The notes under the pieces are model-generated. The model saw only the letters and a list, made by a program, of their open reading frames with translations. It did no database searches and was not told where the DNA came from. DNA of 32,971 bases from IMG/VR virus record IMGVR_UViG_2563366843_000007; one strand, given 5' to 3'. The position numbers were made by a program, and so were the translations under genes. Shown here in pieces: positions 1-13,207 of the stretch (position 1 is its first letter; each line of letters starts with the position of its first letter). This DNA comes from a virus. Its lineage: Duplodnaviria; Heunggongvirae; Uroviricota; Caudoviricetes.

Positions 1-1131
1 TCAAATGACCAGTTTTTTCCACTCCTTGCCGCGTGCATCGTTGTAAATATCGGTCATTTTTTGATTCGAATGACCCAGCAAAATTTTGGTATCAATTCCC
101 TGTTCTCTGAACAATCTTTCTGATAAAGATCTCTGCTCATGGAAAGAGGGTGGGGTGCCATTAGCACGCCAGTTGTAATCCACAGAATCCCGCGCTTTTT
201 TAAATGCAACAGTTAACGTTGCTGGCTTAACCATCCCGCCGCGCTTAGCTGTCCCTTTCGCGTGATGATGGTGCAATAGCCACGGACTAAGAACGCAATC
301 GCGACAGGATGACACCACATCATCCAGGGTGAGATTTAATTTATCGCAACGCAGAGCCAGAGGGATGGCAATCCGGGTTCCTGTTTTTTGCTGTTCGACA
401 TGAAGATAACCATCCCGGATATCCGAAAACTGCATTTTGCAAATATCTGAAAGGCGCTGGCCTGTCACCAGTGCCAGCAGCATGCCGCGCTGTAAAAAGT
501 AACCATCCTTTTCCGCTGCGTTATAAATCATCATCCACTCATCAAAAGTCAGTCGCTGTCTTGATATCCGCACCTGCGGTTTTTTTGCCGATTCTGCAGG
601 GTTAAAGCCTGGCGGGACATCGCCCGTTTGCTGAGCTTCCCGGAAAACATCGATCAGTACCTTCCTGAAAATTTGTCCCATTCTGTTATGTCCTCTGGCC
701 TTGTACTCTTCCAGCACCGATACCACATCTTTTACGGTGATGGCATCTAACGGTCTGGTGCCAAAACGTTCATCAAATACCCTGAGAGGGGCCGCTTTTT
801 GTTTCAGCGTGTTGAGTTTGATTTCTCCGTTTTCATATCTTTCCTGTTGAATTTTTCTGTAATTATTCAGAAAAATGGAAACAGTTGATGAACCGCCGGT
901 ATCATTAATAATTTTCTCCTGCAGACTGAGCATTTGTTCCATTTGCTGCCTGGCAAGACGGCTGTTCGCTTCTGCTGCAATAGTTTCTGCCAGTTTCTGG
1001 TCAATACTGCCGAGACCGTGATTTTTGCCTGTTATGGGATGCCTGTAACGCCAGTAAACTTTGTTATTTCTTTTGTCAAAATATGGAGACAATCCCGGAA
1101 CATCGGTTTTATATTTTCGCGGGCGCGCCAT
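1..1131 (-). CDS. int: Phage integrase, tyrosine site-specific recombinase
   Basis: 376-aa ORF ending exactly at the window edge; tyrosine-recombinase-like C-terminal region (HHHH...R...LLGHS...Y motif context); immediately downstream of an overlapping excisionase-like gene. Confidence 0.9.
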   Translation of the reverse strand: MARPRKYKTDVPGLSPYFDKRNNKVYWRYRHPITGKNHGLGSIDQKLAETIAAEANSRLARQQMEQMLSLQEKIINDTGGSSTVSIFLNNYRKIQQERYENGEIKLNTLKQKAAPLRVFDERFGTRPLDAITVKDVVSVLEEYKARGHNRMGQIFRKVLIDVFREAQQTGDVPPGFNPAESAKKPQVRISRQRLTFDEWMMIYNAAEKDGYFLQRGMLLALVTGQRLSDICKMQFSDIRDGYLHVEQQKTGTRIAIPLALRCDKLNLTLDDVVSSCRDCVLSPWLLHHHHAKGTAKRGGMVKPATLTVAFKKARDSVDYNWRANGTPPSFHEQRSLSERLFREQGIDTKILLGHSNQKMTDIYNDARGKEWKKLVI

Positions 1132-1357
1132 CTTCCAGTATCCTCTTCAAAGCAGGGTGATCTGTGGCGATCACCTCCGGCTTGTTTACCATTCCGACAA
1201 AGCGAGCTCGCGGATCCACTCGCCAGTGTCTTCCAACTTTTTTGGGGAGAGGAAATATCATTCCGGCTTTAGCGTATTTACTTAACGTGCCTGGAGTAGG
1301 GACCGGATCGCTGAATTCCTCTTTTGCCCACTCAGTGAGCAGAATAAGTCTTGCCAT
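1109..1357 (-). CDS. xis: Excisionase-like protein
   Basis: 82-aa ORF overlapping the integrase start by 23 nt; small basic protein in the canonical xis position. Confidence 0.65.
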   Translation of the reverse strand: MARLILLTEWAKEEFSDPVPTPGTLSKYAKAGMIFPLPKKVGRHWRVDPRARFVGMVNKPEVIATDHPALKRILEDGAPAKI

Positions 1358-1421
1358 GAGCGTCGTTCGCTAATCATGGTCGCCGCCACTATAGCTGGTG
1401 GGCGACGACCGGGGTTGAACA

Positions 1422-3902
1422 TTAAAAATCAGCCTGACTCGGGATCAGTTTTTGTATCGTAGCTGTAACGTATTTTGCCTGGTGACGGGCGTCATCCAGC
1501 GCATTGTGGCGCACGCCTTCGAATGGAATAACGGTTCTGGCATCAAAGTCGATTGTTTTTCCCAGCTCAACGATTGTGCGTACATCGCGATCGTTGTAGT
1601 AGCGCCACGGGCAGGGGATGTCCAGGCGTTCGTATGAGGTGCGCAAAATTGCGTTATCGAAAGTTGCACCATTACCCCATACCTGAACTAATTTTTCATC
1701 TGAGTATTCGTTGATGAACTCCCGAAACCGCGAAAGGGCATCCTTCAGTTTTACCTGGTCTGTTAAAATGGCAGCTCTGGCTTCACTGGACTGCTTCAGC
1801 CACCATTCGATGGTTCCACCGTCAGGAACAGCCCCTGTATTCATTGCGTCAGTCAGACTGATAACGATATAAAATACTGGCCCGATTTCCCCTGTTTGTG
1901 GGTCGAAGAAAACCGCACCAATAACCACGATGGGCGCATTGGTGTTGGTTCCCATTGTTTCAAGGTCGATCATCAGGTGGTACCACACTCTGTTGGTGGA
2001 TGTGATAACGTGATGACCGTTCACCGCAATTAAGGGATCTGCCGTCTCGCCAGTTTCATTATCGCTGGCGTGGTCCTGAGCGCTGCCAGCATTCTCCTTT
2101 TGTGGATGTTCAGCGCCTTCCATTTCCTCCGGATCATTTTCCTGAACTTCAACCTGATTCTCTTCATCGAATGTTTCCTGGTATGTTGCGTCGCCCATCA
2201 CCGCACTACAATCAGGGCAGTTGCCGCCACCGATCTGACCGCAGGCTGTGCAGACTTTTTCCGCTTCCTGTTGCGCTACCGGTTCGGATTGTTTCGTTTC
2301 TGGCTCGTTTTGTAACGCATTTTGGCTGTTTTGTTCCGCTTTCTGGTTGTTCTGTTCCGTTTCTTGCTGGTTCTGGTTCACGGAATCGCGGGTTTCAATC
2401 CCCTTCACCCATTTCGGATCATTCGGGTCGCTAATCCCTGCAACAAATTCTCCGCGAGAGGCAGCAAGCAGTTCATTAGCGTCAGGCTGGCTGATATTGG
2501 CTGCCTGCATAATTTTGTTTACTTCGTCAGCGGTAACTTTTACCGGCTCTGGTTGTGCGGTCGTGTCAGATGCACCAGTATTTTGTTGTGAGCCTGAGTA
2601 TGTACCGTTTTTGCGGGCAAAATATTCTTCTTTCGTGATTTCAGTAGCCCCTGCAGCCAGCGCCTTATTCAGACCAGAAAGTTTGTTTGCACGACCATAT
2701 TTTTCGCCATCCTTATCGGTGAAAAGGAAGTAGAACGGCCCCTCACGCTCTACAGATGGTTCAGTTTCCAGCGTGCTTTCATTTTTTTGGGTATCAGATA
2801 CTTCAGTTTCCACTGCATCAGTTTGTGCTGCTGACGGCTGGAGAATATCAGCAGTGTTCTGGTCTGTTTCTTCATCCTCAAACACGCCCTTTGTCGCCAG
2901 GTATTCAGTGATGTATTTGTTCAGTGCTACGGGATCTTTGTGAATGTCGATCGGACGCTCACGGACAAGGCCAAAAATAGTCTGACGGTCGTAGCGAACG
3001 GCATCGAGTTGTTTGCGCATTGATGCGGAAATGCGCTTCCAGTCTTCGCGATCTTTGTCGATAACTTCATTTTTTGCCCAGCGATGGATGCTGCCGTCAA
3101 TGTTTCCGGCATTAATATCGCCAGGCCACAGAGCGTAGGCCAGTTCTTCATCCAGCGTTTTCCATGTCTGCTTGTATTCGCGACGAATGGCGGCAGTGGC
3201 GGGGTTGATTTTTCCTGCTGAGTTTTCAGTGTGCTGCCGGTTGACTCTGGCGCGGGCAAGATCAACAACAGACGTGTATTTCCCGGTTTCTTTGCGTTCG
3301 GCTTCGCGACGTTTTTTCCAGGTGCGTAATTCTGTCTGGATCTCAGGCCATTTTGCACCCGGCTTACATTTATGTTTAACCCACCCGATGGCGAGCAGCT
3401 TTAGTTCTGAATACATGACGTTAACTTCAGGCATTTTCATCAATGCCTCAACGATATGCCCGTCGAATGTTGCCATGTCCTCCTGCAACAATTCCTGTGC
3501 ACTAATCACCATATCAACAGTGATGTTTTCACATGTACCGAACTTAACCAGGACCGCGTTCTGTACTTCAAGGGACAGCTTGTCAAAATTGACGTTCATC
3601 GGATCGGATTCTGGTTCGACCGGGACAAAGGAAGCGCCTTCCTCATCCCAGCGGTTTTCCAGCATATATTCGGTATCCCAGGAGTCGATGGCAGGGCGGG
3701 GCATGCCGGGTTTATCCTCGCAGACAAGAAATTTATAAGCGCAGTCCTGAGCAGCCGGATATTGCTCCAGGAATTGCCAGGTAAATTTGGCACGGGCGCG
3801 GCGTTCGTCACCGGCTTCAATGGCAGTGGCTACAGCCACTGCACCTTCTTCCTTTATTGCCTGTTCGTCCGGAATGGCGGCGCAAATAAAGACTTTACTC
3901 AT
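1422..3902 (-). CDS. Exodeoxyribonuclease VIII-like protein with C-terminal DnaQ-like 3'-5' exonuclease domain
   Basis: 826-aa ORF. C-terminal ~190 aa has DEDD-type exonuclease signatures (MIDLETMG..., ...[12 protein letters not shown]..., H...ALDDARHQA). Central Cys4 motif [15 protein letters not shown] and a Q/N/E-rich low-complexity segment. Confidence 0.7.
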
Positions 3903-3981: not shown

Positions 3982-4185
3982 TTACGGCGCTGTTTTAAGT
4001 CCTGCCGGGATTTCGTTATTATCCATGTGAATAACTTTATCGACCGGATAGCAGTTACCGGGAATTTTTTGTTCTGCTGCGGCAGCCATGCATTCTTTCA
4101 TTGAACCGTAAATGTCAATAACCATGTCAACAGGTTCGCCAGTATTAAGAAAAACAGTCAGAGTGAGGGCAATAGCAGTATTCAT
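3982..4185 (-). CDS. Small protein, YdfD-like (DUF1482-like)
   Basis: 67-aa ORF starting MNTAIAL with hydrophobic N-terminus; its ATG overlaps the dicB stop (ATGA), as for ydfD in the Qin dicB operon. Confidence 0.5.
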   Translation of the reverse strand: MNTAIALTLTVFLNTGEPVDMVIDIYGSMKECMAAAAEQKIPGNCYPVDKVIHMDNNEIPAGLKTAP

Positions 4186-4370
4186 TGCCAGTATCCTTTT
4201 TGCATCGGGCGTAAACGTGCCAGCATTGAAAGAATGCATATTTTATTTAATAGCTCCCGTTCGTGTTTTCTTTTGTTAATGGCCTCTTCAGTAAATACAG
4301 GATTACTGATAGTGACACCAATTTCAAAACAACCTTCAGACGTATTAACGTTTGGTAATAACGTTTTCAT
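4182..4370 (-). CDS. dicB: Cell division inhibitor DicB
   Basis: 62-aa ORF MKTLLPNVNTSEGCFEIGVTISNPVFTEE... matching my recollection of E. coli DicB in length and N-terminal sequence; GAGGG Shine-Dalgarno 8 nt upstream; lies 169 bp downstream of DicF. Confidence 0.7.
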   Translation of the reverse strand: MKTLLPNVNTSEGCFEIGVTISNPVFTEEAINKRKHERELLNKICILSMLARLRPMQKGYWQ

Positions 4371-4539
4371 TATCGCGCCCTCAACAATGAGTTTTGTGAT
4401 GCGGTGCCTGGTGCCTCCAGGTGACGTTAACCAGTTAACAATTAACGCCGGATACAGAGAATCCACCCATAACACTGTTTTTGGTTTTAACTGTTCCGCG
4501 TGCGCTCAGCCGCATTCACCGCATCACAAAATTCACTTT

Positions 4540-4597
4540 AAAAAGGGCGGCAGAGCAGTCACGGAGTAAAACTGATACCGCCAAACGTCACCAGAAA
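4540..4597 (-). ncRNA. dicF: DicF small regulatory RNA (ftsZ-targeting sRNA) with intrinsic terminator
   Basis: Minus-strand sequence UUUCUGGUGACGUUUGGCGGUAUCAGUUUUACUCCGUGACUGCUCUGCCGCCCUUUUU matches the DicF sRNA as I recall it, including the GGCGG/CCGCC terminator stem and U-tail; sits directly upstream of dicB. Confidence 0.8.
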
Positions 4598-4931
4598 ATT
4601 GATAACAGAGGGCGTTGCAGCGGGGTTGTCACTTAAGCGTATGGTCAACCTGACAACCCGGTGTCCTCAACGGGGGAAGGAATAACCCCGCCATACTTAC
4701 CGCCGCGCCATTTCGCGGATTGCCACAACCGGAAGCGCACGGTCGACGAAAATTTAACGACAGGCTATCTATGAACCAGCTACCTCGCCGTGCGCTTTCG
4801 CGTTATGGTCTGACTTTTCAGGGAAATATCCTTTCAGTAAACTGTCAGTGCCGGATGTTCACCCGTGTCCGGCGCACGCACTCCACCTCACCCGTGGAGA
4901 ACTCCTTAATTACCAACCCTCAGGAGGGTGA

Positions 4932-5165
4932 ATGTTAAAATCAACTCTTATTGCTAAATGCCTTTATCAAAATCGCATGGTAAGCAGCATTTCAATAGGC
5001 GAGTCTGCAGTTAAAAGTATTTTCGAAGAGTACTTCCCCGGGCATGATTTTAATAAATGGAATACCAAATTACCGCCAGCAGTTTCAACGCGTATTCTGA
5101 AAGCAACTGAAAGAGCAAGTACAATTCGCGTTAACTATTTCATTAAAGATTTGTGGGATCTTTGA
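4932..5165 (+). CDS. Hypothetical protein (77 aa), AT-rich, no recognisable motif
   Basis: ATG preceded by AGGAGGG at 5-nt spacing; ~38% GC; convergent with and overlapping the 3' end of the 135-aa minus-strand gene by 23 bp. Could instead be antisense to that gene's 3' UTR. Confidence 0.4.
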   Translation: MLKSTLIAKCLYQNRMVSSISIGESAVKSIFEEYFPGHDFNKWNTKLPPAVSTRILKATERASTIRVNYFIKDLWDL

Positions 5166-5550
5166 CATCCACAGAGCCTAAAGTATGTGCATATGGATGT
5201 GCTATTGTGCGCCCTCGCAGATTTGCATCATTTTCTAAATTCACTGAACGAAACAGGGCATCAACAAGGCTCTGTACAATGCAAAGGCAATCGAAGACTG
5301 TCGCTGTTTCTGTTTTGATTGATGAAAGAACATGGCCATTCACGCAAACAGAAATTACCCGTTCATTAACATCGCTTTCCTGCTTTTGATTATCAGAACC
5401 ATATAGCCCAGAAAAAGCATTGCGCACATTACGAACCATATTATCGATGGTTTCTTTTTTGGTGTATGCCGGGTCAATTTTCACCAGACTATCACCGAGA
5501 GTCGTTGCAGCAATTGTCTGGATTTCTTTTGGTAAATCTTTAAATTCCAT
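5143..5550 (-). CDS. Hypothetical protein (135 aa), AT-rich moron gene
   Basis: ATG with GAGG 6 nt upstream, immediately downstream of the ydfC-like gene; ~40% GC against a markedly more GC-rich left flank; no recognisable family motif. Confidence 0.55.
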   Translation of the reverse strand: MEFKDLPKEIQTIAATTLGDSLVKIDPAYTKKETIDNMVRNVRNAFSGLYGSDNQKQESDVNERVISVCVNGHVLSSIKTETATVFDCLCIVQSLVDALFRSVNLENDANLRGRTIAHPYAHTLGSVDVKDPTNL

Positions 5551-5572
5551 TATTAGCCTCGTTGGTTAGCTA

Positions 5573-5791
5573 TTAACGTGGGTATGTAATCATTCTGGCA
5601 ATGCTTAATGCCGCTGCTTTTTCCAGCCTGGTGATATCCTGCTCCAGAGCGGACAGATTTTCAGCCTGCTTAGCCCTGGCTTCATTGGCCCATTTCAGAT
5701 CCTGCGCTGCATTAATTTTCTGGCGCATCCACTCATAAAGTTCATCATCGGTATAGTCTGGCGCGATGATTACGGGTTCTCGTTTCTGCAT
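5573..5791 (-). CDS. YdfC-like protein
   Basis: 72-aa ORF in the position and of the size of Qin ydfC, upstream of dicF in the minus-strand operon. Confidence 0.55.
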   Translation of the reverse strand: MQKREPVIIAPDYTDDELYEWMRQKINAAQDLKWANEARAKQAENLSALEQDITRLEKAAALSIARMITYPR

Positions 5792-5811
5792 ACTGATTCC
5801 TCGCGGTGCTG

Positions 5812-5949
5812 TTTCGCTTATCAGCCGTTAGATTTTGCCGAACTGGAAAGCGCCTGTTTAAATTCGCTGAAGCTGAGAGTTTCTTCGCCTTCGGCAAGGC
5901 CTTCGAAGTATTCTTCGTAAGCCTTTTTCATGATTGTGTCGAAATCCAT
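5812..5949 (-). CDS. YdfB-like small protein (45 aa)
   Basis: Short ORF MDFDTIMKKAYEEYFEGLAEGEE... (below the 60-aa ORF track cutoff), starting 1 nt after the ydfA-like stop; tightly packed operon context. Confidence 0.4.
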
Positions 5950-5950
5950 A

Positions 5951-6106
5951 TCACTCACCTGAGTTTCTTTCCAGCCAGCGACGCGCGCCAGATTCGGTTT
6001 TAAACGTTTTGCTTTTGGTATACGTCATCGCGGTGAACGTACCGTCCTGGTTGGGGAACACGCCACATACCAGAGATTCGCTGTTGCCAAGATCGATAGT
6101 ATCCAT
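5951..6106 (-). CDS. YdfA-like small protein (51 aa)
   Basis: Internal ATG (MDTIDLG...) with GAGGT Shine-Dalgarno 5 nt upstream gives a 51-aa product, the size of Qin YdfA; the longest ORF extends to 6187. Confidence 0.5.
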   Translation of the reverse strand: MDTIDLGNSESLVCGVFPNQDGTFTAMTYTKSKTFKTESGARRWLERNSGE

Positions 6107-6287
6107 GCTGACCTCATTTCCCCTTAACGCCGGGGTAGCGGAACAAAAACCTGCTGCATAGTTATTAAAGTTGAACCCTGCCGTCATGTTCTTACGCCTC
6201 GGGCTGGCTACTTAACCCCTGACCACTGCCTGGTAACTCGAAGTATTGCCCTGCATTCTGTGGGGCGGGGTGGGTTGGTATGTTGTT

Positions 6288-6307
6288 AAGGTAACAAGAG
6301 TTACCTT
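6288..6307. promoter_or_regulatory. Candidate OL-type operator (AAGGTAAC-N4-GTTACCTT) in the promoter region of the ydfA-dicB operon
   Basis: 8-bp inverted-repeat arms around a 4-bp spacer, sharing the GTAAC-N4-GTTAC core with the two sites between the repressor and cro-like genes. Confidence 0.5.
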
Positions 6308-6345
6308 TAGAGTCAATACAATGTTGCAAAAGGTACATTTGAGGG

Positions 6346-6373
6346 CATAAAAAACCCGCAATGAATGCGGGTT
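6346..6373 (-). terminator. Rho-independent terminator downstream of the repressor gene
   Basis: Minus-strand hairpin ACCCGCA-UUCAU-UGCGGGU followed by a U-run, 6 bp after the repressor stop. Confidence 0.6.
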
Positions 6374-6378
6374 CTGAC

Positions 6379-7053
6379 TCAGTCTAAGTATTGATGTATT
6401 TGTGAAACTTTACCTTTAATGGTGTAACCACCATTCAGTTCGATGGGTTTGTAAAGCGGATTCAGTGACAACAGATAGATGTTTGGTCCGTCAATCGCAA
6501 CTTTTTTTAGTGTTACGTTTGGCGTTCCTTCCAATTGGATTAAGATTATTTTTCCCACCAGTTCTCTAATGTTACTTGAGCATGGTGTGATCAGCACGGT
6601 AGATCCGTCGGGGATGGTTGGGAGGCCGTTAGAGTTTGTCATCGCATCTCCCTCAACATGCAATAAAAAAGAGTTTTCAGCGGTTTTTGTCATGACATCA
6701 ACCCAATTCTTAATACCAGGAATCTCGGTTACTGGACAACTCATATCCCAATAACCAGCCTGTTCCCACGTTAAAACGGGCAACCGGGCGATGTTGTCAC
6801 TAATGTAAAGGTACTGATTCAGACGCAGATCATCGGTTTTATCGTGACCGTCCTTTCCATAAAGAATCCATTCAGGAGATTTGGAAAGCAATTTTGACAG
6901 TAGATGTAAATTCTCACCGTCAGGTTTTGAAGAGCCATTTTCCCATTTTGTTACGGATACACGAGATATGCCGATTGCTTTCGCAACCTGCTGTTGGGTT
7001 AATCCTACGTCTTTTCGACGATTCCGAATACGTTCGCTGATAGTGTTTTTCAT
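6379..7053 (-). CDS. CI/C2-type prophage repressor (N-terminal HTH, C-terminal S24 LexA-like peptidase)
   Basis: N-terminus MKNTISERIRNRRKDVGLTQQQVAKAIGISRVSVTKWENG... is an XRE-type HTH resembling P22 C2; the C-terminal half is assigned as S24 self-cleaving peptidase fold from overall resemblance to C2/CI (catalytic Ser/Lys not individually identified). Start at 7053 keeps both OR operators intergenic; the longest ORF extends to 7152 (TTG). Confidence 0.85.
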   Translation of the reverse strand: MKNTISERIRNRRKDVGLTQQQVAKAIGISRVSVTKWENGSSKPDGENLHLLSKLLSKSPEWILYGKDGHDKTDDLRLNQYLYISDNIARLPVLTWEQAGYWDMSCPVTEIPGIKNWVDVMTKTAENSFLLHVEGDAMTNSNGLPTIPDGSTVLITPCSSNIRELVGKIILIQLEGTPNVTLKKVAIDGPNIYLLSLNPLYKPIELNGGYTIKGKVSQIHQYLD

Positions 7054-7054
7054 G

Positions 7055-7115
7055 TAACCAATGTTACTACCAAGTGATGTTGCTATGGTTGACATCGATA
7101 TGTAACTATTGTTAC
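7055..7115. promoter_or_regulatory. OR operator/promoter region with two GTAAC-N4-GTTAC operators (7055-7068, 7102-7115)
   Basis: GTAACCAATGTTAC and GTAACTATTGTTAC, 47 bp apart, between the divergent repressor and cro-like genes; a TTGACA hexamer at 7089-7094 lies between them. Confidence 0.55.
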
Positions 7116-7144
7116 CCTCCTGCTCGAAATAACAGGAGAGTTTT

Positions 7145-7360
7145 ATGTTCAAAGATGATGTTCTGCGCTATTTCAAAAAAAAGCGACTAGTAGCTGAGGC
7201 TCTTGGAATTTCACATGTGGCTGTTGTGCGGTGGAAAGCAGTTATTCCCAAACTTCGCGCAATGGAACTGGATGAAATTACTAACGGTGAATTGAAATAC
7301 AACCCAGAACTTTACAAGAAGCAGGATAGCACCTCGAACGAAGGAAAGAATGATTCATGA
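7145..7360 (+). CDS. Cro/YdaS-like HTH transcriptional regulator
   Basis: 71-aa ORF divergent from the repressor; HTH-like segment RLVAEALGISHVAVVRW; GGAGAG Shine-Dalgarno. Confidence 0.7.
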   Translation: MFKDDVLRYFKKKRLVAEALGISHVAVVRWKAVIPKLRAMELDEITNGELKYNPELYKKQDSTSNEGKNDS

Positions 7361-7782
7361 AAATCAAGCATGAACACATCCGCATGGCGATGAATGCCTG
7401 GGCGCATCCGGACGGCGAGAAAGTACCGGCTGCGAAAATTACCAAAGCGTATTTCGAACTGGGAATGACGTTCCCGGAACTGTATGACGATAGCCATCCG
7501 GAAGCCCTGGCTCGCAATACTCAGAAAATATTCCGCTGGGTGGAGAAAGACACCCCTGATGCTGTTGAAAAAATTCAGGCGTTGTTACCAGCGATCGAAA
7601 AAGCAATGCCACCTCTGCTGGTGGCCCGAATGCGCAGCCACAGTTCAGCCTATTTTCGGGAGCTGGTGGAGACGCGGGAACGACTGGTGAGGGACGCTGA
7701 TGATTTTGTCGCAGTGGCGATCGCTGGTTTCAATCAGATGAATCGTGGTGGTCCGGCGGGAAATGCCCTGGTGATGCACTAA
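7357..7782 (+). CDS. YdaT-like protein (CII functional analogue family)
   Basis: 141-aa ORF beginning MKIKHEHI..., as I recall for Rac YdaT; overlaps the cro-like stop (ATGA). Confidence 0.6.
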   Translation: MKIKHEHIRMAMNAWAHPDGEKVPAAKITKAYFELGMTFPELYDDSHPEALARNTQKIFRWVEKDTPDAVEKIQALLPAIEKAMPPLLVARMRSHSSAYFRELVETRERLVRDADDFVAVAIAGFNQMNRGGPAGNALVMH

Positions 7783-11340: not shown

Positions 11341-11551
11341 AAACGGTTTGCGGGAAAAGGAGAGTTAAGTAGAATTGCAGCGGGTGCTTGAGGCTATCTG
11401 TCTCAGGCATGAACACCAAAAGGCAGATAGAGAAAAGCCCCAGTTAACATTACGCGTCCGGCAAGACGCTTAACATTAATCTGAGGCTCAATCTATGAAC
11501 GGCAAATCTAGGTTAGCCTCTTACGTGCCGAAAGGCAAGGAGAAGCAGGCT
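11341..11551. promoter_or_regulatory. hok mRNA leader region (possible mok-like upstream start and antisense Sok-like RNA)
   Basis: Structured leader upstream of hok; an in-frame upstream ATG at 11495 with GAGG; inverted repeat CTATCTG...CAGATAG at 11395-11439. Confidence 0.35.
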
Positions 11552-11707
11552 ATGAAGCAGCAAAAGGCGATGTTAATCGCCCTGATCGTCATCTGTTTAA
11601 CCGTCATAGTGACGGCACTGGTAACGAGGAAAGACCTCTGCGAGGTACGAATCCGAACCGGCCAGACGGAGGTCGCTGTCTTCACAGCTTACGAACCTGA
11701 GGAGTAA
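11552..11707 (+). CDS. hokD: Hok/Gef-family type I toxin (HokD/RelF-like)
   Basis: 51-aa product MKQQKAMLIALIVICLTVIVTALVTRKDLCEVRIRTGQTEVAVFTAYEPEE, typical Hok transmembrane and periplasmic domains, essentially as I recall RelF/HokD; AAGGAG Shine-Dalgarno. Confidence 0.8.
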   Translation: MKQQKAMLIALIVICLTVIVTALVTRKDLCEVRIRTGQTEVAVFTAYEPEE

Positions 11708-11874: not shown

Positions 11875-12147
11875 ATGGCGCACAAAACCAAATTTCACAA
11901 ATCTGATACCGACCTTACCATCCGGCACGGGCGGCGTTCACGCGCATTTAAAACCGACTGGTTCCAGCATGACCCCTGCACTGAAGAACAGGCCGAATGG
12001 CTGATTCAGAACTACCGCAGACGTGGCTATGAGTTTCAGAAAGACCTCAGTCTTGACTTCCGACACTGGATAATTTCCGTCAGGCTCCCCTATTCCGAAC
12101 GCCCACCACGCCCGTCCCGCACATTCCAGCAACGCATCTGGAGGTAA
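11875..12147 (+). CDS. Hypothetical Arg-rich protein (90 aa)
   Basis: ORF between hok and the DUF968 gene; weak Shine-Dalgarno; its 3' end carries the Shine-Dalgarno of the next gene. Confidence 0.35.
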   Translation: MAHKTKFHKSDTDLTIRHGRRSRAFKTDWFQHDPCTEEQAEWLIQNYRRRGYEFQKDLSLDFRHWIISVRLPYSERPPRPSRTFQQRIWR

Positions 12148-12148
12148 C

Positions 12149-13195
12149 GTGCGGGTATTACTTCGACCTGTTCCGGTACCGGAACTCGGGCTGGTGGTCC
12201 TTAAGCCGGGGCGTGAATCCATGCAGGTATTTCATAACCCTCGAGTGCTGGTGGAGCCTGAACCGAAAAGCATGCGCGGGCTGCCGTCCGGGGTCGTTCC
12301 TGCCGTTCGCCAGCCGCTGGTGGAAGACAAAACATTGCTGCCGTTTTTCAGTAACGCACGGGTGATTCGTGCTGCTGGTGGTGCTGGTGCATTGTCTGAC
12401 TGGCTGTTGCGCCATATTAAATCCTGCCAGTGGCCACACGGCGATTATCATCACAGCGAAACTGTCATTCACCGTTATGGTACCGGCGCGATGGTGTTGT
12501 GCTGGCACTGCGACAACCAGCTGCGTGACCAGACCTCAGAATCACTTGAGCAACTTGCTCAACAAAACCTGACAGCATGGATGATTGACGTCATCCGTCA
12601 CGCAATAAGCGGTGCGCAGGAGCGTGAATTATCGCTGGCTGAATTATCCTGGTGGGCTGTCTGCAATCAGGTGGCGGACGCACTACCGGAGGTAGTATTA
12701 CGTCGTTCTCTGGGGTTACGTGCGGAAAAAATTCGCTCGGTGTACCGCGAAAGCGACATCATACCGGGAGAGCAGACAGCCACCAGCATACTGAAGCAGC
12801 GCACAAAAAATCTTGCGCCGCTGCCTCACGCCCACCAGCAAAACCCGCCACAGGAAAAGACGGTGGTCAGTATTGCCGTTGATCCGGAGTCTCCTGAATC
12901 TTTCATGAAGCGGCCTAAACGTCGCCGTTGGGTGAATGAGAAATACACGCGTTGGGTAAAGACACAGCCGTGTGCGTGTTGTGGTAAGCCAGCCGACGAT
13001 CCCCATCACCTGATTGGTCACGGTCAGGGAGGGATGGGGACAAAAGCCCACGATATTTTCACGCTACCGCTGTGCCGGGAGCATCACAATGAACTTCATG
13101 CTGATCCGCTGACATTTGAAGAAAAGCATGGTTCCCAGATTGATTTAATTTTTCGTTTTCTTGATCACGCCTTTGCAACCGGCGTGCTCGGGTAA
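12149..13195 (+). CDS. DUF968-family protein (YdfU-like) with C-terminal HNH-like Cys/His motif
   Basis: 348-aa ORF, GTG start 4 nt after GGAGG; C-terminal CACCGK...DPHHLIGHGQGGMGTKAHD...CREHHNELH motif as in lambdoid DUF968 proteins. Confidence 0.65.
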   Translation: MRVLLRPVPVPELGLVVLKPGRESMQVFHNPRVLVEPEPKSMRGLPSGVVPAVRQPLVEDKTLLPFFSNARVIRAAGGAGALSDWLLRHIKSCQWPHGDYHHSETVIHRYGTGAMVLCWHCDNQLRDQTSESLEQLAQQNLTAWMIDVIRHAISGAQERELSLAELSWWAVCNQVADALPEVVLRRSLGLRAEKIRSVYRESDIIPGEQTATSILKQRTKNLAPLPHAHQQNPPQEKTVVSIAVDPESPESFMKRPKRRRWVNEKYTRWVKTQPCACCGKPADDPHHLIGHGQGGMGTKAHDIFTLPLCREHHNELHADPLTFEEKHGSQIDLIFRFLDHAFATGVLG

Positions 13196-13207
13196 AAGAG
13201 GTTACTG

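Follow-up and report, generated by a model that had tools for sequence, protein, structure and literature searches.

A probable lambdoid immunity module over a dicB operon, with a repressor predicted to be naturally blind to RecA

What keeps the dicB operon silent in a prophage whose repressor is not DicA, and could DNA damage lift that silencing? The question is raised by an immunity locus in the IMG/VR virus record IMGVR_UViG_2563366843_000007 (Caudoviricetes), whose 32,971 bp were analysed as a whole and are called the window here. We consider it quite likely that positions 6288-7367 form a lambdoid prophage immunity module on the plan of P22 immC and Qin dicA-dicC, with a repressor that is a predicted natural ind- allele. 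The switch is of an ordinary kind, and its operator/repressor specificity is a new heteroimmune one in the P22/Qin family. Its value lies in a defined specificity that is common in E. coli and would govern dicB and dicF (cell division, phage resistance).

The repressor (224 residues; 6379-7053, minus strand) consists of an N-terminal helix-turn-helix (HTH) domain of the P22 C2/DicA type, a linker and a C-terminal S24 domain. Pfam matches are HTH_3 (2e-16) and Peptidase_S24 (9.4e-17), the latter over 115/116 model positions. The protein aligns to lambda CI residues 24-226 (E = 1e-13), and its N-terminal domain aligns to P22 C2 and 434, with E about 3e-12 for the P22 C2 structures PDB 1adr and 2r1j. 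It is 36% identical to P22 C2 and to phage 21 cI. Residues 4-73 are 54% identical to DicA, and that homology is confined to the N-terminal 70 residues. The initial annotation described a P22 C2-like repressor with an S24 domain, and the Pfam and PDB alignments agree.

The S24 active site shows one substitution. The VEGDAMT segment of the repressor aligns with VEGNSMT of lambda CI (PDB 3bdn), and the nucleophile Ser149 is replaced by Ala137 (codon GCG, 6643-6645, minus strand), the position of Ser119 in LexA. The other elements are retained. The scissile Ala-Gly bond is kept as A99-G100 in EQAGYW, corresponding to A111-G112 in HVQAGMF of lambda, and Q and A/G are conserved in homologues. The general-base lysine is kept as K182 in TLKKV, corresponding to K192 in FKKL of lambda. 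Slilaty and Little in 1987 reportedly found that LexA S119A and lambda S149 mutants are unable to autocleave, and S119A is said to block RecA-mediated cleavage as well. Because the nucleophile is Ala137 and LexA S119A cannot cleave itself, we predict that this repressor is a natural ind- allele, unable to self-cleave on activated RecA. The suggestion in the initial annotation that it is probably RecA-cleavable is thus not supported.

The substitution is common in E. coli. Among 78 homologue clusters the residue is Ser in 72 and Ala in 4, the closest ones from E. coli and Salmonella, and the motif is lacking in 2. All Ala-type clusters retain the QAG motif without exception. A 55-mer centred on the codon was counted in 5,426 complete E. 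coli genomes; GCG occurs in 683, TCG in the same context in 0 and a TCA sister allele in 16. In a set of 87 near-identical sequences, made up of 86 IMG/VR loci and the window, 86 carry Ala and 1 carries Ser. Among the Ala alleles, codon 137 reads GCG in E. coli and GCA in Salmonella; the closest relatives with Ser have TCA or TCG. Because the two Ala codons differ beside these Ser codons, the catalytic codon has changed at least twice. Between two Ala lineages the synonymous divergence (dS) is about 0.7, and the ratio of nonsynonymous to synonymous divergence (dN/dS) in the C-terminal domain is 0.05, indicating strong purifying selection. Dimerisation and cooperativity are the presumed reasons why the S24 domain is kept.

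A wider reading is put forward tentatively, as one that falls somewhat short of an even chance. A single TCN to GCN change would have made a natural ind- repressor that is now the dominant allele of an immunity type present in about 13% of complete E. coli genomes. The prophages and their dicB/dicF genes would then be RecA-blind, answering to nothing or to a separate antirepressor, and the pattern would reflect population-scale selection against SOS inducibility with the rest of the switch intact. If the repressor is uncleavable, about 1/8 of E. coli genomes hold a lambdoid prophage without the RecA route of induction, which bears on predicting antibiotic induction of prophages and on how prophages are tamed.

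The repressor would act through a 14-bp operator. The motif GTAACNNNNGTTAC (GTAAC-N4-GTTAC) has exactly three perfect matches across the 32,971 bp, at 6291-6304, 7054-7067 and 7102-7115 (operators are given without strand). The chance expectation is 0.03, and three copies were reached in 0/100 dinucleotide-preserving shuffles. The left site, OL1, lies upstream of ydfA and has the core GTAACAAGAGTTAC within an extended 8+4+8 inverted repeat at 6288-6307. The right-hand pair, OR3 (GTAACCAATGTTAC, 7054-7067) and OR1 (GTAACTATTGTTAC, 7102-7115), lies between the minus-strand HTH_3/Peptidase_S24 open reading frame (ORF) and the plus-strand P22_Cro ORF. OR3 directly adjoins CAT (7051-7053), the repressor start codon, and contains a -10 TAACAT like that of PRM. 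OR1 lies within the spacer and -10 of the rightward promoter.

Two details of the earlier description need correction. Of its right-hand sites, 7102-7115 is as described and 7055-7068 is one base off, the true position being 7054-7067. Its perfect 20-bp palindrome AAGGTAACAAGAGTTACCTT is correctly placed at 6288-6307 and is in fact an 8-bp inverted repeat flanking a non-palindromic AAGA. The motif search that it proposed for further copies found these three sites only, with none elsewhere in the window without mismatch. Allowing one mismatch adds a single site, 13192-13205 (GTAAAAGAGGTTAC), at the 3' end of a DUF968 (ydfU-like) gene; it is probably a chance occurrence.

The positions of the sites are conserved. 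We compared 25 related loci with repressors 42-89% identical to that of the window. Many enterobacterial genera are represented, among them Yersinia, Buttiauxella, Erwinia, Kluyvera, Rahnella, Edwardsiella, Klebsiella and Salmonella, besides E. coli. A site with at most one mismatch starts exactly at -14 from the conserved repressor ATG in 25/25 loci and exactly at -62 in 24/25. A further site lies downstream of the repressor stop and terminator in 21/25. Measured from the c2 ATG of P22, the corresponding 14-bp cores begin at -16 (OR3), -41 (OR2) and -64 (OR1). The outer pair is 48 bp apart, as here, and the middle core is 25 and 23 bp from the outer cores; the window equivalents are -14, -39 and -62. 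The sites also resist variation. Among the 87 near-identical sequences, 0/30 half-site positions of the strong sites are polymorphic against 5.35 expected, with 28/127 at other intergenic positions (P = 0.0014). There is good comparative evidence that the three strong sites are operators that the repressor would bind, because their positions are conserved, their half-sites are invariant and the N-terminal domain is homologous to that of P22 C2. The assignment of these sites to a P22 C2-like repressor is thereby borne out, as positions are conserved in the related loci and the spacing equals that of P22 OR.

The most variable intergenic stretches among the 87 copies are 7096-7098 and 7119-7122. 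CGA at 7096-7098, between the -35 of PR and OR1, is unique to the window; the other copies carry T at the first of these positions and T or C at the third.

Between the outer right-hand sites the P22-matching spacing predicts a weak OR2 at 7079-7092. The candidate there (GTTGCTATGGTTGA) has 4/10 mismatches and overlaps the PR -35, and its centre-to-centre distances are 25 bp to OR3 and 23 bp to OR1, as in P22. In close relatives this position reads TCAAC-N4-G[TGC][TA]AC, with better versions such as TCAACCATGGTTAC. On the left, a candidate weak OL2 (GTTGCAAAAGGTAC, 6323-6336, 3 mismatches) lies upstream of the PL -35 and corresponds in position to the second downstream site of relatives and of Qin dicBp. 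The module probably has five operators rather than three, the two extra ones being candidates by position.

Promoters were assigned by reading the sequence, and the operators are built into them. For the dicBF operon, a putative PL-like promoter (6288-6316, minus strand) has a -35 TTGACT at 6311-6316, a 17-bp spacer and an extended -10 TGT-TACCTT at 6288-6293, and its transcript would start near 6281. For cro, a putative PR-like promoter (7089-7118, plus strand) has a -35 TTGACA at 7089-7094, an 18-bp spacer and an extended -10 TGT-TACCCT at 7113-7118. A ribosome-binding site AGGAGAG (7134-7140) precedes the cro ATG at 7145. In both promoters the operator occupies the spacer and runs three bases into the -10. 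The layout is alike in relatives, with TTGACN, 17 bp and a -10 made from the last three operator bases. The repressor gene is followed by an intrinsic terminator (6349-6373, minus strand), AACCCGC-loop-GCGGGTT and then a U run. Its RNA fold has an energy of -16.7 kcal/mol (z = -3.65), and a hairpin with a T-run occurs at the same place in relatives.

The RefSeq (PGAP) annotation starts the repressor at 7095 and gives 238 residues (WP_001394126.1). We rejected this start. All 21 homologues compared have the Met of 7053, most of them start there, and an upstream in-frame start is absent in 10/25 relatives. The 14 extra codons (7054-7095) are translated operator and promoter: 'GNIGY' comes from OR3, and 'MS' from the PR -35 TTGACAT read on the opposite strand. 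The start at 7053 favoured by the initial annotation is borne out by the same observations. Annotation of this repressor family thus appears to place the start systematically 14 codons too far upstream, so that an operator and a -35 box are translated. Relatives often have a TAG stop at the codon position of the annotated 7095 ATG.

The start at 7053 is not preceded by a Shine-Dalgarno sequence, and the PRM-like TAACAT (7061-7066, minus strand) is found 7 nt ahead of the A of this start codon. Because of this distance, we infer that the maintenance transcript is leaderless or has a 1-nt leader. The lambda cI maintenance mRNA is leaderless. A further example is the paaR2 repressor mRNA of CP-933P, which is leaderless too (PMC8630535).

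To the right of the operators the module encodes the two other regulators. The Cro-like lytic repressor (71 residues; 7145-7360, plus strand) matches PF14549 P22_Cro (2.9e-16) and is 39% identical to DicC and 47% to phage 21 and P22-group Cro. It is followed by YdaT, the CII equivalent (141 residues; 7357-7782, plus strand), which is near-identical (E = 3.6e-89) to CP-933P YdaT in PDB 3c4r and 8bt1 and also matches the CII-like activator family phrog_163. A probable YdaT site (ATGATTCATGAAAATCAA, 7350-7367, without strand) spans the cro stop and the ydaT start. It is the sole match in the window to TTGATT-N6-AATCAA at one mismatch or fewer, with 0.11 expected. The YdaT motif and its place at the end of ydaS in CP-933P have been described (PMC9986795). 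Positions 7350-7367 thus mark a probable establishment promoter region of the PRE type, and such a PRE-like promoter would be common to prophages with unrelated repressors.

These parts suggest how the switch may work. The repressor would bind the 14-bp operators as a dimer through its HTH domain. On OL1 it would cover the spacer and -10 of the leftward promoter and keep ydfABC-dicF-dicB-ydfD, the exonuclease, xis and int silent. On OR1, probably together with a cooperatively filled weak OR2, it would cover the -10 and -35 of the rightward promoter for cro, ydaT and replication. High levels of repressor, or Cro, at OR3 would shut the maintenance promoter, since the site lies over TAACAT and adjoins the ATG; the first base of the transcript from that promoter would coincide with the AUG or lie no more than about 1 nt from it. 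For establishment, YdaT at 7350-7367 would drive transcription back through cro. The S24 domain with Ala137 would serve dimerisation and cooperativity without RecA self-cleavage. Derepression would then need an antirepressor or a stochastic takeover by Cro, or would never occur.

Several observations weigh against parts of this reading. A consensus promoter and terminator scanner found none over 5900-7400, and both -10 hexamers are weak, with 3/6 consensus positions. With the maintenance start at 7053, OR2 is centred near -32.5, in comparison with -42 for lambda. A lambda-like activation geometry for the maintenance promoter was not adopted on account of this distance. OR2 and OL2 do not stand above background by sequence alone in the window-wide mismatch count, 113 14-mers of the window having at most three mismatches to the motif, and OL2 is polymorphic at 6327, 6332 and 6336 among the 87 sequences. 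As motif hits the two sites were rejected, 3- to 4-mismatch sites being common in the window, and they are kept as positional candidates only. Strict retention of Ala-Gly by the Ala lineages may reflect cleavage that persists by some route. The Ala-type module also occurs in prophages that differ in integrase and attachment site, which fits an element that still moves or recombines.

How, then, might a repressor of this kind be relieved? In one account a protein antirepressor inactivates it, as for Gifsy or DicA/Rem. The dead S24 domain would be a docking or oligomerisation surface, and SOS or another signal would act via antirepressor expression. Such precedents of non-cleaved lambdoid repressors under antirepressors include DicA, the repressor of dicBF itself (PMC10448788). 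A genome with the identical module and integrase has an ORF6N gene just inside attR that matches PHROG anti-repressor families (3e-88). This candidate antirepressor lies outside the window (NZ_CM147848.1, L032, 10975-11535) and has a promoter-like sequence TTGACA-N17-TATATT and a hairpin leader with a T-run. However, no antirepressor is recognised within the window, and the ORF at the position of Qin rem is without similarity to Rem. Perfect LexA boxes are absent from the window as well: CTGT-N8-ACAG gives 0 perfect matches and 13 with one mismatch against 10.8 expected, which is the chance level, and the sequence upstream of the ORF6N gene shows none. We regard this account as possible and rather unlikely as it stands. 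The ORF tried as a Rem-type antirepressor is a 90-residue frame between hokD and the ydfU-like gene (11875-12147, plus strand) and was rejected; it shows no Rem similarity and no NCBIfam match. It belongs to phrog_1212, whose function is unassigned, and a match of at least 99% occurs in 2/5,426 genomes, with 80-90% relatives in more than 2,500.

In another account the prophage is grounded. The change from Ser to Ala would have been favoured as it stops lethal induction, and the module would serve the host as a stable silencer of the toxic dicB and dicF and as superinfection immunity, with rare stochastic switching. The ratio of Ala to the Ser sister allele in complete E. coli genomes (683 to 16) and the repeated change of the catalytic codon (GCG in E. 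coli and GCA in Salmonella, beside Ser relatives with TCG or TCA) are as expected for such selection, but two gains are equally parsimonious with one gain and one reversal. Lysogeny carries a fitness cost in the mouse gut that a lambda cI ind- mutation abolishes (PMC4752277), and selection for non-inducibility is therefore plausible. A DNA search of phage records found none that carries the immunity region, only the flanks being matched; this absence is weak evidence, however, as just 10 phage records share even a flank. The IMG/VR hits are mostly prophage calls from isolate genomes and were not used as evidence of free virions. The occurrence of the module with two integrases at two attachment sites, beside apparently complete early regions, also speaks against grounding. 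We hold this account only tentatively, on the unlikely side.

The standard account would make this an SOS-inducible CI/C2 repressor, with RecA-activated self-cleavage and direct derepression of the dicB operon and the prophage by DNA damage. The full-length S24 domain, with Ala-Gly and Lys aligned to A111-G112 and K192 of lambda, fits it, and isolated phages among the relatives, for instance Pantoea phage AH07 (P0040), possess an intact dyad. Here, however, the nucleophile is Ala, a sequencing error is excluded by the 683 genomes and 86/87 sequences, and LexA S119A reportedly abolishes both autodigestion and RecA-mediated cleavage. We consider this account improbable. Cleavage of the retained Ala-Gly bond in trans by a co-resident Ser-bearing S24 protein, for example in a mixed-dimer repressor, would explain the strict QAG motif of the Ala-type clusters, is akin to the intermolecular cleavage of LexA and lambda CI by C-terminal domains that Kim and Little reportedly saw in vitro in 1993, and finds partners in the several lambdoid prophages common per E. 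coli genome (the flank is matched in up to 8 places per genome), but the in-vitro reaction is said to be inefficient, the Ser sister allele is rare (16 genomes) and the Ala-Gly region is also structural and conserved without need for cleavage, so we find it highly improbable.

We return to the predicted natural ind- module and its place among known systems. It resembles laboratory lambda cI ind- and LexA S119A in having an S24 domain with intact cleavage site and Lys, no Ser, and predicted RecA non-inducibility. Unlike these, it is natural and near-fixed in a widespread allele, with dS about 0.7 between Ala-bearing lineages. With P22 immC it shares the divergent repressor and cro genes, the HTH and S24 repressor with 36% identity, a P22_Cro-family Cro and 14-bp cores with 5-bp half-sites 4 bp apart at nearly the same offsets (-14/-39/-62 here, -16/-41/-64 in P22). 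It differs from P22 in the half-site (GTAAC here, TTAAG in P22) and in the recognition helix (SRVSVTKWEN here, SNVAISQWER in P22). OR2 is also much weaker here, the catalytic Ser is replaced by Ala, YdaT stands for CII and the left operon carries the dicBF genes.

The closest plan is that of Qin in K-12. There the regulator occupies the same place in the operon, followed by ydfA-ydfB-ydfC-dicF-dicB-ydfD; the promoter/operator layout of dicBp is alike, and the Qin operator likewise adjoins the dicA ATG. DicA represses dicBp and is not cleaved in the SOS response (PMC10448788). Yet DicA has 135 residues and no S24 domain, whereas the window repressor has 224 residues with S24. The DicA operator Oc is TTGTTAGTCATAACTAACAA, of the TTGTTAG...CTAACAA type (PMC3441716), whereas the window operators are GTAAC-N4-GTTAC; because of this difference the two modules should be heteroimmune. 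Scores against NCBIfam fall below the cut-offs for both Qin regulators, at 81.7 bits for the repressor (DicA cut-off 101) and 56.1 for Cro (DicC cut-off 130). No Rem homologue is found here. The element has the integrase of an ompW-site prophage and is not Qin. We read the module as a heteroimmune homologue of dicA-dicC and not as an unrelated replacement. The initial annotation proposed that it replaces the DicA/DicC of Qin; the same place is indeed held, while the proteins are homologues (54% for DicA, 39% for DicC) rather than unrelated replacements.

Two further systems are related in part. CP-933P (PaaR2/YdaS/YdaT) has essentially the same YdaT, with its site at the end of the cro-like gene. 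Its PaaR2 repressor and operators are unrelated to those of the window, and its repressor operon carries a toxin-antitoxin pair. Gifsy-type repressors are not cleaved in SOS and respond to LexA-controlled antirepressors (PMC10448788). They are alike in being non-cleaved lambdoid repressors, as is predicted here, that need another inactivation route; here, in contrast, the repressor has an entire S24 domain in which a single catalytic residue differs, and no cognate antirepressor or LexA box is found in the window. A literature search on the ZF40 repressor and operator, WP_001394126, natural loss of the catalytic serine and ompW prophages with dicB returned nothing specific to the window repressor or operators, which is weak evidence given its incomplete coverage.

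The left operon that the module would control (3982-6106, minus strand) comprises ydfA, ydfB, ydfC, a 135-residue ORF, DicF, dicB and a ydfD-like gene. Within it ydfA (DUF1391; 5951-6106, minus strand) and dicB (4182-4370, minus strand) are recognised by Pfam, a DUF1482 ORF is also present, and the DicF small RNA (4545-4596, minus strand) scores 76.7 bits in Rfam. The operon continues into exonuclease, xis and int genes (1-3902, minus strand). The window starts at the stop codon of the integrase, which is 100% identical to that of the ompW-site prophage in E. coli 52F4. This strain is identical to the window over 6200-7400. A potC-site prophage with an integrase of only 45% identity also has this module. 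Because it is found at both the ompW and potC sites with different integrases, the immunity module is an exchangeable cassette.

Phages of other immunity types resemble the window in the ydfA leader up to about 6280-6288. Their homology stops within a few bases (6283-6288) of the OL1 edge and the putative PL start, a sharp mosaic junction at this operator. The 135-residue ORF (5143-5550, minus strand), located between ydfC and dicF, has no Pfam match. It is found neither in K-12 Qin nor in the 52F4 prophage, which by its coordinates is about 630 bp shorter in this part. In the early-right region, as in Qin, there is a hok/sok type I toxin-antitoxin locus (11382-11707), with a sok RNA of 112 bits and a HokD ORF.

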